Origin: Escherichia coli
Lineage (GTDB): Bacteria; Pseudomonadota; Gammaproteobacteria; Enterobacterales; Enterobacteriaceae
Reading direction: 5' to 3' (one strand)
Assembly (NCBI RefSeq): GCF_024502345.1
Contig: NZ_JALDNN010000001.1
Length of the DNA stretch: 64,000 nt
Within the stretch, counting starts at the first letter, position 1, and each line of letters begins with the position of its first letter. Below, piece by piece: positions 29,424 through 64,000 of the stretch. A program made the translations under genes and the position numbers. The notes below the pieces were generated by a model, which was not told the DNA's origin, ran no database searches, and saw only the letters and a list, made by a program, of their open reading frames with translations.

Positions 29424-30136
29424 CTCTTTTCCGGGTGGAGTCGCCGTAAATGGTACTCCACCTGGTATTCGCTGGCATTTCTGAACATCACTGAATAATT
29501 CAAAAACTCCCCGCTCTCACTATATGACAACGAGGTGATCCGCAGCAGTGGCGTGTGTTCCGCTACCTTCATTTGCCGCGCCAGCAGTCTATCGGCGAGC
29601 ACCGGCGTCAGGCTTTCATAATTACCGCCAATCAAAATCCCACACTCTTGTTCAATATATTCAAACTTCGACCCTTCCAGATGTTGCAGCGAAAGGTTAC
29701 GGAACAGTTTTACCGGCATATAGCTGTCTTCCAGCATCAGCGGTTTCCCTTCCACAAAACGAACGCGACGGGAGAAGTAGATCTGCTCGTTGATTTGAAT
29801 CCGTAACTGGCTGGCAATGGCCGGAGGCGCAGGCATGATTTCAAAAATCAGCACCTGGCTGGTGACCGTTTTTCCCTGCCGTTTTAACACCTCCACCAGC
29901 CCGGTCAGGCTGGCGGTTTGATGCAGTACATCTTTACGCACCAGGTAAGTGCCGCTGCCGTGGCGGCGGACCACCAATCCCCACGCTACCAGCAGGTCAA
30001 TGGCTTTACGGATGGTCATCCGCGATACCGCAAATTCTTCCGCCAACTTTTTTTCACCGGGAAGAAGGCTATTTAGCGTGAAATCTGCGGAATTAAGTCG
30101 AATTCTTAACCGCTCCGCAATGCTTTTGTAGATCAT
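29420..30136 (-). CDS. yidP: GntR-family transcriptional regulator YidP
   Basis: Start at [13 protein letters not shown] (ATG 30134-30136); HTH plus UTRA-like C-terminus. Confidence 0.8.
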
Positions 30137-56563: not shown

Positions 56564-57785
56564 CTGTAGATTCAATCTGTCAATGCAACACCCCTTTCAA
56601 TTATCTCTTTCGGTGTTTTGAACTTCAGTGTCTTTCTCGGTCTGTTGTTTAGCTGAGCAGCAACCAGATCTAGTTCATGTTGAGTATATTGGGCAAGACA
56701 TGTCTTTTTAGGAAAGTACTGCCGAATTAGCCCATTTGTGTTCTCATTTGTTCCCCGCTGCCAAGGACTCTGAGGATCGCAGAAGTAAACTTTAACGCCG
56801 GTGCTGACAGTAAATTCTAGATGTCTGGCCAGTTCCATTCCTCTGTCCCATGTCAGTGATTTTCTGAGTTCTGACGGTAAACTCAGGAATTTGTCGGTAA
56901 GAGCCTGATTTACTGAGACAGAATCTTTGCCCCTGAGTCTAAGGATGATCGTATAACGTGATTTTCGGTCTACAAGTGTGGCTATATGAGAGTTTTTTGT
57001 ACCTGAGACTAAATCGCCCTCCCAATGCCCCAGAGAGCGTCTGTTATCGATATTTCGGGAACGTTCGTGAATTGGTGTTCCGTTCACTATGTTAATCGTA
57101 CCTCTTTCGCCTTTGCGGGTATGACGCCTGCCATGGCGAAGGCTATGCGACCGTCGCAGATGCTGTATATTCAGGTGGTGTAGCGCTTCACGGCTACGAA
57201 AGTACAGCGTTTTATAAATTGTCTCAGGTGATATTCGCAGCGTTTTTTGACGTGGTTTTGTTCGCCTTAACCATCCTGATATTTGCTCTGGAGACCATTT
57301 CATCTCCAGCTTTTCCAGAACAAGCTTTCGCAATGGTAAATTTTGATCCAGTAAGCACGGTTTTGGCCTTTTCGCCATTCTGTTGGCTCGGTTATTAGCA
57401 TCAACAGCTTTGTAATAGCGTCTGCCCCGATTACGCTGAACTTCACGTGAGATCGTCGAAGGACTGCGATTCAGCGCAGTAGCTATCGCACGAATGCTCA
57501 TTTTGGCTGACAAACCAGCTCGTATCTCCTCGCGCTCAGACAGTGTCAGGTGAGCTACAGCCCGCTTACGCTCATGGGGTTTTATGCCGCCAGTATCCCT
57601 TAACATAGTGAAGATCGTTCCGGGTTTTGAACCCAGGATATTCGCTATTTCACTGAAGCCTGTTCCGTTCTTCCATAGTTCAAAAACAGAGGCTTTTTCC
57701 TCTGCTGTAAATGTTCGTCTCATTCAAAAAACCTCCGCAACCCCATGTTTTCACATAACTGTTGCGTTGACCAATTGAATCTACA
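56564..57785 (-). mobile_element. IS30 insertion sequence (complete, about 1.22 kb)
   Basis: Terminal inverted repeats (tgtagattcaatctgtcaatgcaacacccc at one end, tgtagattcaattggtcaacgcaacagttatgtgaaaacatgggg in reverse complement at the other) flanked by a 2-bp direct repeat gc. Confidence 0.9.
56572..57723 (-). CDS. insI: IS30 transposase
   Basis: 383-aa ORF with N-terminal HTH and C-terminal DDE integrase fold, fills the IS30 body. Confidence 0.9.
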   Translation of the reverse strand: MRRTFTAEEKASVFELWKNGTGFSEIANILGSKPGTIFTMLRDTGGIKPHERKRAVAHLTLSEREEIRAGLSAKMSIRAIATALNRSPSTISREVQRNRGRRYYKAVDANNRANRMAKRPKPCLLDQNLPLRKLVLEKLEMKWSPEQISGWLRRTKPRQKTLRISPETIYKTLYFRSREALHHLNIQHLRRSHSLRHGRRHTRKGERGTINIVNGTPIHERSRNIDNRRSLGHWEGDLVSGTKNSHIATLVDRKSRYTIILRLRGKDSVSVNQALTDKFLSLPSELRKSLTWDRGMELARHLEFTVSTGVKVYFCDPQSPWQRGTNENTNGLIRQYFPKKTCLAQYTQHELDLVAAQLNNRPRKTLKFKTPKEIIERGVALTD

Positions 57786-58882
57786 GCCGCGTATCTCGCT
57801 TTCTATGGATGGAGGGTAAAATTTCTACGGGTTGGGTAACGACAGGAATATTTCTTTGTATTGATGGCAAAAACAACCAGACTATCAGCCCGCAAACAAC
57901 AAATGCGATGGCAGCGGTGAGATACATCACTTTAAAACTAAATCCCATTGCCAGTTCATAAGCGAGCGGTGGCCCGATAACCCAGGCAAGCGAGATCTGA
58001 GCACGTAAAAATGTACTGAACATGACCGTCTCACGGCCTGTTCTATCGGCGTGTTCACGGGCGAGGGCGAACATTTGCGGGTTTGCGGTGGAAGCAAAAC
58101 TACTCAGAAGTACGCCCGTTGAGAGGAGAATGAAGTAGTTGCGATTCCACGCAAAAAGCGTGCAGGCCAGCACTCCAAATAAGCAACATAGCAGAATCAG
58201 TAATTTACGGTCGCCTTGTTTATCGGAGTGCCTTGCCAGAAATTGACTGACCAGAATTCCCATAATAGCGCTACCGGTGAAGAAAAAACCTACCATTATA
58301 GGACGGGCTTTCAGTTCATCTGCGAGGAATATACTTAGGGTAGGAGTCTGAAGAGCGCCCGCAATACCCGTCAGAAAGGCGACAAGTAAAAATGCCGCGG
58401 CAGTGAGATCAAGTATTTTTGATGGAGTGGTAGCCGTTTTTTGCATTCTTCTGAATCACCGGGCGAAAAAATATAACTGAGTTACAAATAAGTACCAGTC
58501 GAATGAGTATTGTATTAAGAATTTTTGAGTATCGCTGATACAACCAGAAAGCAATGCTAGCGCAATATTATAGGGCCAGCAATTGAGATTATTAGCAAAA
58601 GCATGTTAAGAATTAATTACCGAATTTATATATTAATTATAGTAAGGCAATGAGCTATTTTTGATAGTAAAAATAAAACAAGTTGATTTGATATATTAAA
58701 TGAACAAATTAATCTTGATGGCAGTCTGATTATTGGTGAAGTTTATAGTCAGTTTTTTTCGCCAGCGGTTAAAGAAATAGAATAATCGTATAAAAAAGGG
58801 TGTTCTGGGGCGAGTAAAACAACATCTTCACCTTAATGGCGATACAGTTGGCTGAGAGTCAGCAGGGGGGCAAATCACCTGC

Positions 58883-59003
58883 AAATAAACACGGCGCATA
58901 CTGGCGTGAATATCGCGGATGCGTTCGAGGACAGAAGAACCGACAGGCGGATTCTTCAGCCGCTCATCGTCCATCACAAAACCTTAGACCAGGTATTCCT
59001 GAA
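58883..59003 (-). pseudogene. fragment of a RhuM-family gene (paralogous remnant)
   Basis: About 120 bp with clear nucleotide similarity to 59745-59893 of the intact gene, including a 34-nt identical core; carries a deletion and an in-frame stop. Confidence 0.55.
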
Positions 59004-59214
59004 GCCGATTGAATATTGAGCAGTAGAAAATATCTGGATTGACAGTATTACAAGGGGTTGGAGAACGTCAGGAGAGGCATTTTGGCGATCACAGGAGTCG
59101 CATTCAGCGGCTTGATCTGTTGAATTTAGTGGTTTTTATCGTGTTGGATTTTTGTTGGTGCCCCCTATTATGCCCCCAAATGATTTTGCTTGTGGTGGTT
59201 ATAGGCATTCAGAG

Positions 59215-60252
59215 CTACTTTTTAGGCTCTGTTTTCCATTGTAGCAAACCGGCGATATCCTTCTCACCTTCGGCTTCTTTTAAGCGCCGTTGTTGTTCAG
59301 CAAACTGACCATACTCCGCCTGCGCTTTTTCATCGGCCATTTTCTTACTGATTTTACCTGCGCCTTGCAAAACCTCACGGTCGTTAAATTGCAGGAACTG
59401 ATCCAGCTTATCCTGCCAGTCGCGTAAAAAGACCTGCTGACGACGACGGGCCTGATCCTCGGCAAAATCCAGCCACATGTTAACTACGCGGTTAAGCTCG
59501 CTGACTTCATCCTGAGTGAGATAATTTTTTGCCACCGTCACGTCACCCTTACGCACCTCTTCACCTTTATAGCTGGTCAGCCCCATATGTGGCTGGCTGG
59601 CGTCAGCACGCAGATGAATGAGTTCAGCGGCGGTATGTCCGGTACAGGCAAAATGTAACTTGTTCTGGATGGTTTGAAAAAACTGCGTGGTTTCTTTCAG
59701 TGATGGTTGATAGTCGGCGGCTAACGCAAAGATCTCTCGCACCCGTAAATAAACCCGACGTTCGCTGGCGCGAATATCGCGGATACGCTCCAGCATCTCA
59801 TCGAAATAGTCGGGCACAGCCGATGAACCCACGGGCGGGTTCTTCAGCCGCTCATCGTCCATCACAAAACCTTTGATCAGGTATTCCTGGAGCGTCTGGG
59901 TTGCCCACTGGCGGAACTGCGTGCCGCGAGGGGAGCGAACGCGGTAGCCGACAGCAAGAATAACAGGCAGGCTGTAGTGAAGCCTGTTGCGGCTTACCTG
60001 ACGGCCACCTTCCTGTTGAACTTGTAAGTAAGACTTACAGGTTGCGTTTTGTTCAAGTTCGCCTTCTTCATAGATCGCTTTAATGTGCTGTGTAACTGCC
60101 TGGGGAGTGATCTGATAAAGGTTTGCGATGGTTGCCTGAGGGAGCCATAGTGTCTCTTGCTCAAAGCGGCATTCAACACGAACTTCACCGTCATCGCTGG
60201 CAAACATAACAAATTCGCCTGCCGGGGATTGGGTTAAGTATTTATCTGTCAT
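59215..60252 (-). CDS. RhuM-family protein
   Basis: 345-aa ORF (MTDKYLTQS...) with RhuM-family conserved blocks (VISVGYRV-like, RGTQFRQWATQ, LIKGF..DDERLK). Confidence 0.65.
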   Translation of the reverse strand: MTDKYLTQSPAGEFVMFASDDGEVRVECRFEQETLWLPQATIANLYQITPQAVTQHIKAIYEEGELEQNATCKSYLQVQQEGGRQVSRNRLHYSLPVILAVGYRVRSPRGTQFRQWATQTLQEYLIKGFVMDDERLKNPPVGSSAVPDYFDEMLERIRDIRASERRVYLRVREIFALAADYQPSLKETTQFFQTIQNKLHFACTGHTAAELIHLRADASQPHMGLTSYKGEEVRKGDVTVAKNYLTQDEVSELNRVVNMWLDFAEDQARRRQQVFLRDWQDKLDQFLQFNDREVLQGAGKISKKMADEKAQAEYGQFAEQQRRLKEAEGEKDIAGLLQWKTEPKK

Positions 60253-60339
60253 GCCGTCTCCGCTTATATCTGACTCGCAATGCTGTAATCCGCTTAGTAT
60301 GCCAGAAATTCTTGGTGAAGCTTATTACGCAGATAGCGT

Positions 60340-61173
60340 TTATTTTGCGGGCAGCGCTCCCGGATAATGCTTTGCCACAATGTCATTCATCTTCTCCACC
60401 AGGTCCAGACGCTTAAACGTGATATGCCCGTTGCCTTTCTGAAAGTAGCGAATGGTGAACATATCGTCTTTAAAGACCTGTTGATGCGGGTTATCGCGAA
60501 CAAAATTCATAAATCGGATAGAGACATCATGCCGGTTGTCAGGAATGGTTTTGCCATCCAGCAGGTAAAGCATCCGTTCCAGATCGGCGAGCTGATCGCG
60601 CCGCCAGCCCCAGTTCAGACTGAAGCCCCATCTGTCATGCTTCACCAGATTGTTGACGATAATCTTCTTACCGAAGTAACAGGGATTATTGGTTTTGTAG
60701 TCCCAGCTTAACCCTTTAAATACATTGATAATCCCACGTTCGAAAACATCCTGTTTATTGTGGTGGAGTTGTTCAAAGGTACTTAGGATGTTGGCTTCAC
60801 TGATGGCCGGAAGATCGCCCTCTTCGAGGTTTTTAGCCCACTGGCTGCGGGCTTCGGCATCCATCAAGGTCAACATCCCGGACTTCAGCATGAGATCGCG
60901 CCAGATACTGCGATCGATATTGCAGGTAATCACCGGCATCGCTTTATCGACTGGTTGCATCAGCCAGCAGTCAAAGGAATGGCCCTGTCGCATCGCCCAA
61001 TGCTCCGCCACATCACCACCGATGCTGGAGGTTAGCCGTGAGATATCATCAAGCTTATGGATCAGGATTTCTATCAGGCTCAGCGCAGCATCACGCCCTG
61101 TGACGATGCGTTCTATACTGGTTGAGCAAATTAGCTCATTATGATCGGTTAAAACTTCAGCTTCTGTTTGCAT
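60340..61173 (-). CDS. DUF4942-like protein
   Basis: 277-aa ORF from ATG 61171-61173 (MQTEAEVLTDHNE...); family call from memory of proteins encoded downstream of CbtA-family toxins. Confidence 0.5.
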   Translation of the reverse strand: MQTEAEVLTDHNELICSTSIERIVTGRDAALSLIEILIHKLDDISRLTSSIGGDVAEHWAMRQGHSFDCWLMQPVDKAMPVITCNIDRSIWRDLMLKSGMLTLMDAEARSQWAKNLEEGDLPAISEANILSTFEQLHHNKQDVFERGIINVFKGLSWDYKTNNPCYFGKKIIVNNLVKHDRWGFSLNWGWRRDQLADLERMLYLLDGKTIPDNRHDVSIRFMNFVRDNPHQQVFKDDMFTIRYFQKGNGHITFKRLDLVEKMNDIVAKHYPGALPAK

Positions 61174-61287
61174 GATATTTTGTCCGTAAAAAGCAAACAC
61201 GCCCGCCGGGAGTGGCAGGCGCATTATGCAATGAGTAAATAAGGAAGACAGATCGGGAATGTAATTCGGGAAGGAGGCTCGCAAGAT

Positions 61288-61620
61288 TCAGCGTGTCGAA
61301 AGATTATGGCCTTGTCGTAACAACCCCATTGCCTGTCGCGCCCGCAAAATGTCTACAGCCCGCAGATAAGGCGATTGTTCCTGCCAGCTAAATCCTTTGC
61401 GATCGATGCGAACGAGTTCGTATTTTTCCACCAGAAAGTTCACGGCATCGGCAAGAGTAACGCCTGCGTTGATATGTTCCTGAATGACTGTTTCATCGCA
61501 GAATGGCGTGTCACTCAGGGCCAGGCCATAGTGTTGTGCAAGTAGACGGGTCAGTAACATCTGCCAGACGGCCACAGGCGACGGGCATGGCTTCGCTATG
61601 TGTGCGTCCTCCTTTCGCAT
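61288..61620 (-). CDS. CbtA/YeeV-family toxin homolog with atypical N-terminus, no adjacent antitoxin gene
   Basis: 110-aa ORF whose body ([28 protein letters not shown]...AVNFLVEKY...DILRAR) aligns to the YeeV/YkfI/YpjF family; first 12 residues differ and overlap the upstream ORF. Confidence 0.65.
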
Positions 61621-62329
61621 TGCGCCCGTTCAGACCACCTTTAATCAGGTTCTCCTGAATGCGCTGATAGGTTGTCCAGAGGTCACCGGACTCATCCTGC
61701 CAGCGACGGGGAGCCAGTAGCTGAGATTCCGTCACCGGCTGATGCTCTTCGCCAAAACGATACGTCAGCGCAGCTTGCGCCAGCGCCGCCTGTGCTGGTG
61801 GAGGTAGCATGAGTGACTGCATGGCATCGCGCTTCTCTTCTACGCGGTCAAATATCCCCAGCACTTCGTAAGCCCCTTCAATGACCTTCTCTACTACGTT
61901 GCCTTTATGCGGGACACGCACCTCCCCGAACGACTCGCCGCAAATCAACCCATTTTGGCAAACAGATCTGAATAAACCCGGCAGCATTTGATATGAACTG
62001 GAGCCGTCATGGCTGTTAAGCAGGATTATTTCTGGCACTTGTTTGCCAGTAATCTGGCCTTCTCGGCGTAGGCGCAGCATGTGTTTGGTGTGCTCACGCT
62101 TGCTCTGGTCCCGCACTCGGGTCTGGCAGGCAAAGAACGGTTGAAAGCCTTCACGCTTCAGGTTATCGAGCAGAGTGATTGTCGGAATGTAGGTATAGCG
62201 GTCACTGCGGGATTCATGTTTGTCTTCGCTGAAGACGCTGGGCACATAGTGCGCCAGCTCCTCGCGGGTTAACGGGCGGTCACGGCGCACAAGATTGGTA
62301 GCACCAAAACGGCTGGCTAAACGGGTCAT
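61511..62329 (-). CDS. DUF932-like protein (YfjQ/YafZ-like), C-terminus overlapping the toxin ORF
   Basis: 272-aa ORF from ATG 62327-62329 (MTRLASRFG...) with ggag RBS; last 37 codons overlap the toxin ORF in another frame. Confidence 0.55.
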
Positions 62330-62399
62330 AGGCGACTCCTTTAAAAATGGGCATAAAAAAGCCACCCCGAAGGATGGCCTGGATTGAAAGGCTGGATTA

Positions 62400-62849
62400 T
62401 TAAGGTGAAACAGAAGGGTGTATCTGCGATGCAGTCTTTTCTGAATCTGGTATCGGCAATGCAGATAGTTCGGCAGGACTAAGCTTTCCTGCGCGGTAAA
62501 GTTGCAGTTTCACCAGAATCGGCGCTTTTTGCGACTGAAGGTAACTCAGGCACCATTCCCGCTTCAGGACTATCCTGACCGGGGCAGGCAAAAGCTCATA
62601 TGCTTTGCTAAAAACGACTTCAACAAAAGCATCATCACTCAGTTTATCCTCGGCAATATTCAACAGACCATTGATGACAATATTTTCCAGTAACAGCCTG
62701 TATTTGTCAGAACCCGTTACCGAAGCTTTAACCGTGTTTTCCGGTAAGTGTTCAGAAGATGTGTCATGATTTTCTGTGTGTGCTTTTCTGCGTGAGAAAT
62801 TCAGCTTTTCTGTAAGGCTACGAAATTTTCCTGTGCTATTTTCAGACAT
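62400..62849 (-). CDS. hypothetical protein (149 aa)
   Basis: ORF from ATG 62847-62849 (MSENSTGKF...) with agga RBS about 9 nt upstream; co-oriented 70 bp upstream of the DUF932-like gene; no family recognised. Confidence 0.45.
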   Translation of the reverse strand: MSENSTGKFRSLTEKLNFSRRKAHTENHDTSSEHLPENTVKASVTGSDKYRLLLENIVINGLLNIAEDKLSDDAFVEVVFSKAYELLPAPVRIVLKREWCLSYLQSQKAPILVKLQLYRAGKLSPAELSALPIPDSEKTASQIHPSVSP

Positions 62850-63092
62850 CGTAATTTTATCCTGTGGCCTCCGCGTCTTGCCATCAGGCAAGTACGGCGA
62901 GTTTTTTTATCGCTTTAATCAGGCTAAAGGTGGTCAAACCTGCACCTAGAGCCCTGACCGTGACCGAATGGCTTCGCATCAACGTAACCCCCATTACGCA
63001 CAGGACAAGTTGCCACGTACAATCAGGCCATGGGGGGTCATTACCCGGCATGTCCGTAACCACTTCGCTTTGACTATGCACGGAAAACACCT

Positions 63093-63736
63093 CTACTTGT
63101 AGCCATTAGGGAGCCACTGGCCCTGTTTGCGAATATCAGTAATAATGCCCCCCTCTTTGACCGAAATGGTACGCCAGCTTGGTTCTTTGCTGGATGCATT
63201 CCCATAGGTATACCCGACAGTCATTGTCAGGTTTTCGCCTGAAGTTGTGGTGAGATCAGCCTCATACTTAGCTTCGGTATTTTGTTTGCGAATAAAACGC
63301 ACGGTGTTGATTGCAGAACAGCGAATACTGCTTTTCGCATATTCAAAGGAATTGTTAGCCATTTGGCATCCGTCGTTTTTAATTTCATCCGTCAGGTTTG
63401 CAGAAACATTAAAGTTCTTAGGTACAGGGGCAAATTTAGCCATGTCGTTTCGCATAGTCGGTGGATCTGTCTGAAGCACAAGATAAACAGGACAATCTGA
63501 TTTGCCTACTTCACACGCTTTTGCCACGTAATCACGTACTGGCCATCCAGCATTACCGAAATATTCCGCACCACTTTCATCTTTGCATTGTGACCAGGTA
63601 GCTTTTTTCCCCATCATAATGCCGTCTACCAGCACACAGGTGACGGCTTTTACAGGCTCACCATCCCACCGGACTGCATCAAAGGGCTGAATGCCTGTAT
63701 GGTTCACGTCAAGCGTGTAGGCCTGTGGATTCCTAG
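63093..63736 (-). pseudogene. hypothetical protein, 5' end truncated by IS5
   Basis: Reading frame open from the IS5 junction to stop at 63093; the first 23 residues of the track ORF are encoded by the IS5 terminus; no family recognised. Confidence 0.45.

Positions 63737-64000
<264 letters not shown>

Follow-up and report, generated by a model that had tools for sequence, protein, structure and literature searches.

An apparent deletion scar in a YkfI/CbtA-type toxin–antitoxin cassette of an Escherichia coli island near setC

Introduction

The locus described here raises the question of how a toxin gene of the CbtA/YkfI type comes to lie in an Escherichia coli genome with no antitoxin gene beside it and with its start beneath another reading frame, and of what such a gene could still do. 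The window, i.e. the whole stretch of DNA that was analysed, comprises 64,000 nucleotides (64 kb) of contig NZ_JALDNN010000001.1. A first-pass annotation of the sequence had proposed that a deletion of 1.5–2 kb had removed the usual upstream genes, with the junction near 61585–61600, and had left open whether the toxin is inactive, neutralised in trans or part of a different pairing. The features on which the argument turns are listed below.

61288..61620, minus strand: chimeric 110-aa ORF, a 5'-truncated cbtA-family toxin gene (Pfam, comparison with E. coli G3/10, RefSeq)
61620–61597, minus strand: codons 1–8 of this ORF (MRKEDAHI), out-of-frame DUF932 DNA
61596–61291, minus strand: codons 9–110, native toxin residues A12–R113
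61290–61288, minus strand: stop codon of the 110-aa ORF
61511..62329, minus strand: DUF932 gene, truncated, an out-of-frame fusion of 272 aa (translations, Pfam PF06067)
61597..61598, minus strand: deletion junction with 2-bp TA microhomology (blastn and base-by-base comparison)

Results

The toxin reading frame and the truncated DUF932 gene

The 110-aa ORF matches the Pfam family PF06755 (CbtA_toxin) with E = 3e-57 and 191.9 bits, with ORF residues 7–105 aligned to positions 10–108 of the 112 in the model; its identification as a CbtA-type toxin over nearly the full length is thus borne out. NCBIfam gave no match to the toxin ORF, the NCBIfam library having no model for this toxin, and a PDB sequence search gave no detectable relative of it. 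Over the 102 toxin residues that remain there is no difference from WP_047399350.1 of E. coli G3/10. The native start MNTSPATNQRV (residues 1–11) is replaced in the ORF by MRKEDAHI, so that the full-length native N-terminus is absent and the first-pass description of the N-terminus as non-canonical was correct; family members are nearly all 112–113 aa long, with a consensus start of MKTLPATTQRA. The toxin reading frame stays open for 8 codons on the 5' side of the junction, up to ATG 61620 in DUF932 DNA, and the unusual N-terminus arises because this out-of-frame DNA happens to provide an ATG. In alignment, the remnant retains the phenylalanine of AVNFLVEKY, the equivalent of the FtsZ-interaction residue F65, which is the FtsZ determinant of CbtA, YkfI and YpjF (PMC5624674). 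It also retains the equivalent of position 15, a Cys as in YkfI and YpjF (PMC5624674).

The DUF932 ORF runs from ATG 62329 to a TGA stop at 61511–61513 and shares 110 nt (61511–61620) with the 110-aa ORF in a different frame, the overlap with the toxin start that had been noticed at the outset. Its match to PF06067 (E = 1.2e-48) covers only model positions 1–212 of 227, so the domain is incomplete. In the 272-aa product, 244 residues are native DUF932 and the other 28 form a junk tail, encoded where the DUF932 frame passes out of register through cbtA DNA; the 29 residues of the native C-terminus are missing.

The deletion junction

We compared the interval 60300–62900 with 5,426 complete E. 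coli genomes by megablast. The whole query was covered in four of them, each time as two pieces spread over ∼3.9 kb as against 2.6 kb in the window. The best full-coverage match is E. coli G3/10 (NZ_CP060075, locus L001), in which the interval measures 3,906 bp (2,601 bp in the window). The island of G3/10 has the gene order hypothetical, DUF932, radC, DUF987, YeeU antitoxin, CbtA toxin, DUF4942, rhuM, setC, yicL and nlpA; this island is found again in strain CFSAN051542, where DUF987 contains an IS3 element. The intact island of these two strains occupies the same setC-adjacent site as that in the window, with the same flanking DUF932, DUF4942 and rhuM genes. The parts of the intact G3/10 island that are concerned here are as follows.

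L001 6576–7397: DUF932 gene (annotation)
L001 7421–7447: terminator-like hairpin (11-bp stem and T-run) in the gap between DUF932 and radC, deleted in the window (consensus scan)
L001 7468–7941: radC (annotation)
L001 7952–8173: DUF987 gene (annotation)
L001 8119–8148: weak promoter-like site, 49 nt upstream of the antitoxin gene, deleted in the window (consensus scan)
L001 8197–8541: YeeU-family antitoxin gene, WP_045265421.1 (annotation)
L001 8577–8918: CbtA-family toxin gene, WP_047399350.1 (annotation)

In the blastn comparison with G3/10 the left piece ends at window position 61597 (L001 7308) and the right piece starts at window position 61598 (L001 8608), within the range that had been predicted for the junction. 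The window reads GGACGCACACA, then TA, then GCGAAGCC, a single copy of the TA being kept; the parental sequences at the two breakpoints are CACA-TA-CCCGCG on the left and GCGGG-TA-GCGAAG on the right. The window matches G3/10 at every base over the 466 nt that precede the junction, as far as ∼62063, and over 2.5 kb or more on its downstream side, and since the flanks are 100% identical G3/10 can serve as a faithful stand-in for the parental sequence at both breakpoints. What the window lacks is 1,301 bp, L001 7309–8609, less than the 1.5–2 kb first estimated; the deletion itself, put forward as a hypothesis in the first-pass annotation, is upheld by this alignment. Judged on these sequences, the locus is almost certainly the scar of one illegitimate deletion between two TA dinucleotides in a YkfI/CbtA-type type IV toxin–antitoxin cassette.

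Relative to G3/10, the 1,301 bp took with it the 3' end of DUF932 (29 codons plus the stop), radC, DUF987, the YeeU-family antitoxin gene, the 35-nt spacer between antitoxin and toxin, and the toxin start region with codons 1–11. Because 1,301 mod 3 = 2, the DUF932 frame enters the toxin DNA in the wrong frame and continues there for 28 codons. Two marks of a deletion-derived gene remnant are present: an intact colinear homologue with extra DNA between identical flanks (in G3/10), and a broken frame with truncation of both border genes, DUF932 by 29 codons and cbtA by 11. In a type IV module a YeeU/CbeA antitoxin gene, read from the same strand, directly precedes the toxin gene, and the window has none at this place. 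The lack of a CbeA-like antitoxin gene in the interval extends to the whole 64-kb window, where none of three G3/10 proteins used as tblastn queries (antitoxin, DUF987, RadC) detected a homologue (best E = 0.029, 25 bits). The first-pass list of missing upstream genes thus stands for the antitoxin gene and radC and falls for the antirestriction gene, as G3/10 has none between DUF932 and radC.

Occurrence of the deletion allele

By exact-protein lookup, the 110-aa ORF is RefSeq WP_256632695.1 (GenBank MCQ7032787.1), which lies on a 4.74-Mb E. coli contig. The 272-aa DUF932 fusion, which is possible only with the deletion, is encoded by no fewer than 24 contigs (34 index blocks; ENA and Logan) that come from independent samples and differing assemblers, and for 24 contigs the gene calls include the 90-aa form of the toxin, which begins at Met21. 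Those carrier copies that were fetched are 100% identical to the window over 3.5–4.7 kb, bar an N-run in one scaffold. The junction was not found by megablast in the 5,426 complete E. coli genomes, and a scan for the exact 26-nt junction gave no hit in GTDB representatives (one genome per species) or in JGI metagenome contigs.

An assembly or sequencing artefact, in which a collapsed or mis-joined contig imitates a deletion, would account for the absence of the junction from all of the complete E. coli genomes searched, and nothing else specific speaks for it. Against it stand the recovery of the fusion on at least 24 independent contigs with 100% identity across the junction, its presence on an NCBI contig of 4.7 Mb as well and the lack of any repeat longer than 2 bp at the breakpoints that could drive a collapse. 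We regard an artefact as exceedingly improbable. On this comparison of sequences, the deletion is a genuine allele that belongs to a single E. coli clone of recent origin, one that has been sampled repeatedly. Since all of the carrier copies are identical, they are uninformative about selection on the remnant.

The public annotation of WP_256632695.1 is the ordinary 'TA system toxin CbtA family protein' and not a pseudogene. Metagenome gene callers give the 90-aa product from Met21, and report the 272-aa DUF932 fusion as a normal protein.

Transcription and translation of the remnant

Promoter and terminator scans were run over the locus; they gave counts no better than those in shuffled sequence, so the hits, both in the window and in G3/10 above, are used as anatomical hints only. 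Two hairpins in the window are relevant.

61196..61225, minus strand: terminator-like hairpin (12-bp stem and T-run) 3' of the toxin stop, the likely end of the transcription unit (consensus scan, pattern match only)
62359..62380, minus strand: terminator-like hairpin directly upstream of DUF932 (consensus scan, pattern match only)

The hairpin 3' of the toxin is also present in the intact island, at L001 8981–9010. Between the upstream hairpin and the DUF932 ATG at 62329 is a strong Shine–Dalgarno (SD) sequence, AAAGGAG. The strong hairpin between DUF932 and radC suggests that in the intact island DUF932 is normally its own transcription unit, apart from radC–DUF987–antitoxin–toxin. Going by these terminator hints, the DUF932 message would run on into the remnant and carry it at its 3' end, because the deletion took the DUF932/radC hairpin and kept the one 3' of the toxin.

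For translation we computed the SD:anti-SD duplex energy for each candidate start.

ATG 61620 (110 aa): SD-like AAAGGUGGU, −7.8 kcal/mol, spacer 13 nt
GTG 61575: no useful SD, −0.4 kcal/mol, spacer 16 nt
ATG 61560 (90 aa): no useful SD, −1.5 kcal/mol, spacer 10 nt
native toxin start in the intact island: weak SD, −3.0 kcal/mol, spacer 8 nt
DUF932 start at 62329: SD AAAGGAGU, −8.2 kcal/mol, spacer 5 nt

With the native start lost, initiation on the remnant would be confined to ATG 61620, which is out of the native frame of the DUF932 DNA it lies in and has the SD-like AAAGGTGG 13 nt away, or to the in-frame positions 61575 and 61560, which have no SD. All three would lie beneath ribosomes that are translating DUF932, and because these ribosomes cross all three starts and terminate downstream of them, internal initiation should be occluded. 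The arrangement of starts and ribosome-binding sites thus suggests that translation of the remnant is probably low. A silent or barely expressed relic, i.e. a pseudogene, is what the sequence most likely represents, and we favour this over a toxin that is neutralised in trans, although an inactive toxin and neutralisation in trans are compatible with one another.

Several observations count against a silent relic. The SD-like sequence at ATG 61620 is stronger than the native one (−7.8 versus −3.0 kcal/mol), though badly spaced; loss of the DUF932 terminator may raise transcription into the remnant; the NCBI pipeline annotates the 110-aa ORF as a normal CDS rather than a pseudogene; and the copies are identical, with none of the decay mutations that would indicate relaxed selection. 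Weighing all of this, we think it probable that the locus is a single deletion scar in a decaying island near setC and that it carries a silent or barely expressed relic which is tolerated by the cell.

Predicted structure of the remnant protein

An AlphaFold2 model of the intact toxin is of moderate quality (mean pLDDT 68). Its residues 1–10 have a pLDDT of 46 and no secondary structure, and the helices that it contains (18–34, 46–54, 59–69 and 91–100) are all kept in the remnant. In the 113-aa subfamily residues 1–11 are moderately conserved: P5 does not vary, R10 has a frequency of 92%, and the mean top-residue frequency over the segment is 0.86, compared with 0.90–0.96 for core positions and 0.57 for the C-terminal tail. 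It is possible, given this conservation, that the loss of residues 1–11 costs some function. If the remnant protein were made, it would probably stay active, with all of the predicted helices and the F65 equivalent in place.

Comparison with known systems

The intact toxin belongs to a 113-aa YkfI-like subfamily and has 82% identity to a cluster named YkfI; like YkfI, it has Cys15 and the conserved F65. Relative to the two-gene YkfI/YafW module, the window has a remnant from which the antitoxin gene and the toxin start have been deleted. CbtA/CbeA (YeeV/YeeU) of CP4-44 is in the same Pfam family as the window toxin. K-12 CbtA, to which the identity is ∼54%, is a more distant paralogue, of 124 aa, with R15 and paired with its antitoxin. 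The YkfI/YafW pair of the cryptic prophage CP4-6 of K-12 shares the upstream order radC-like, DUF987, antitoxin, toxin with the intact island (PMC5371832).

The antitoxins of K-12 provide a precedent for a toxin gene with no antitoxin in cis. CbeA, YafW and YfjZ each neutralise all three K-12 toxins (Wen et al., 2017; PMC5371832), and cells stay viable when chromosomal antitoxin genes are deleted (PMC5371832). The Δ-cbeA, Δ-yafW and Δ-yfjZ mutants (PMC5371832) are therefore like the window in having a toxin without a cis antitoxin; the toxin of the mutants is still full-length and has its native start, whereas the one in the window is 5'-truncated and fused to DUF932 transcription. Toxin mRNA in K-12 is low and is unchanged upon deletion of the antitoxin, so there is no autoregulation (PMC5371832).

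In a 'distant' blastn search, DNA homologues of the island antitoxin were found in 5,003 of the 5,426 complete E. coli genomes (92%), at a median of three places per genome, and on this count the source genome is likely a priori to encode a paralogous antitoxin. The remnant protein, if made, would then be tolerated through the low expression of the family, the dispensability of the K-12 antitoxins and the cross-neutralising YeeU paralogues elsewhere. By analogy with K-12, a toxin gene without a cis antitoxin is not paradoxical in the CbtA family, whether or not the remnant is expressed.

Discussion

The alternative with most in its favour is an active orphan toxin, made from ATG 61620 on the DUF932 transcript, that would still block FtsZ and MreB, with YeeU paralogues in other islands keeping it under control. 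The conserved domain is whole (Pfam model positions 10–108 of 112), the predicted helices and the F65 and C15 equivalents are kept, an SD-like sequence precedes the ATG and the terminator-like hairpin between DUF932 and radC is gone. In work of Tan et al. from 2011, YeeV without its first 15 residues reportedly still gave lemon-shaped cells. The YeeU homologues in 92% of complete genomes would supply an antidote. CbtA remains active when His6 or lambda-CI is fused to its N-terminus, and tags at this end do not do away with its toxicity (PMC5624674), and the K-12 antitoxins cross-neutralise (PMC5371832). What weighs on the other side is expression: the 13-nt spacing from SD to ATG is poor, the start lies inside an ORF of another frame with a strong SD, so that occlusion by elongating ribosomes is to be expected, and the native start and any native toxin–antitoxin promoter have been deleted. 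We therefore consider an active orphan toxin unlikely. The stricter proposal that the pair has been turned into an expressed orphan toxin on the DUF932 transcript, with a YeeU paralogue in another island as its sole antidote, we judge distinctly improbable; if it were true, the host would be 'addicted' to the other island, a cross-island dependency born of gene decay.

The 'different pairing' allowed for in the first-pass annotation would be a novel two-gene system in which the DUF932-derived protein or the DUF4942 protein acts as the antidote. It draws on the physical overlap of the two ORFs and on the constancy of DUF4942 as a neighbour in intact islands. The overlap, however, is an out-of-frame accident of a frame-breaking deletion that cut the DUF932 domain (1–212 of 227) and gave it a junk tail; the arrangement is limited to one clonal allele and is absent from the 5,426 complete E. 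coli genomes, the GTDB representatives and the JGI metagenomes; intact islands have DUF4942 alongside a normal antitoxin; and in K-12 the genes upstream of the toxin–antitoxin pair, radC-like and DUF987, fail to neutralise the toxin (PMC5371832). A new pairing is very improbable and the proposal falls away.

The remnant belongs, in decayed form, to a well-known family, and public databases already contain it; its importance is mostly one of annotation; this would be moderately greater only if the remnant were expressed and dependent on an antitoxin from another island. It would be preferable for WP_256632695.1 to be marked as chimeric and as a 5'-truncated remnant, and for the 272-aa 'DUF932' fusion to be marked accordingly. 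The locus is also a natural example of a cytoskeleton-targeting type IV toxin gene that persists in a circulating gut E. coli clone without a cis antitoxin, in agreement with the laboratory results in which antitoxins are dispensable and interchangeable.

The surrounding island

The remainder of the island and its chromosomal border, as far as they lie in the window, are made up of the following.

60340..61173, minus strand: DUF4942 gene, intact, 277 aa, the gene that normally follows the toxin (G3/10 annotation; PF13708 on metagenome contigs)
59215..60252, minus strand: rhuM, 345 aa, adjoining setC (PF13310, G3/10 annotation)
63737..64000, plus strand: end of an IS5-like (ISKpn26-family) element, with an approximate end coordinate (homology)
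56565..57784, minus strand: IS30 within setC, the chromosomal gene that flanks the island

The IS5-like end truncates a gene that encodes a 267-aa hypothetical protein in the intact island; homology to G3/10 begins at 63732, 164 nt into this CDS. A CTAG is found at 63736–63733 next to the IS5-like end, and the upstream rest of the island is beyond the window. The IS30 element encodes a 383-aa transposase, has 28-nt terminal inverted repeats and splits the sugar efflux gene setC into halves at 58446–57785 and 56564–56039. On metagenome contigs with the cbtA deletion setC is intact (394 aa), and because these carriers have the intact gene the IS30 insertion is younger than the deletion and specific to the strain of the window. 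The whole fits ordinary gene decay in a horizontally acquired island that has also been damaged by IS5 and IS30.

A step from 94 to 100% identity to G3/10 was considered as the breakpoint, or as the trace of a recombination between two islands, and was rejected, as it lies at ∼62063, 466 nt from the junction. This mosaic boundary is inside DUF932: the identity of the window to G3/10 is 100% on the downstream side and ∼94% upstream (62063–63732), the best match to the upstream stretch among the 5,426 complete E. coli genomes being 95.4%. The boundary points to an earlier exchange of DNA by homologous recombination among variants of the island, an event separate from the deletion.

Downstream of rhuM, at 58937–59005, 69 nt of the gene (59825–59893) recur with 91% identity; their counterpart in G3/10 is annotated as a rhuM pseudogene fragment, and many short-read contigs end close to this repeat. 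The chromosomal backbone at 30000–54000 (the adeD, yidK, ilvB and uhpB region) has at most 99.0% identity to the best of the 5,426 complete genomes, of which only four reach 99%. The source lineage seems to be poorly represented among complete genomes, though it is recurrent in gut metagenomes.
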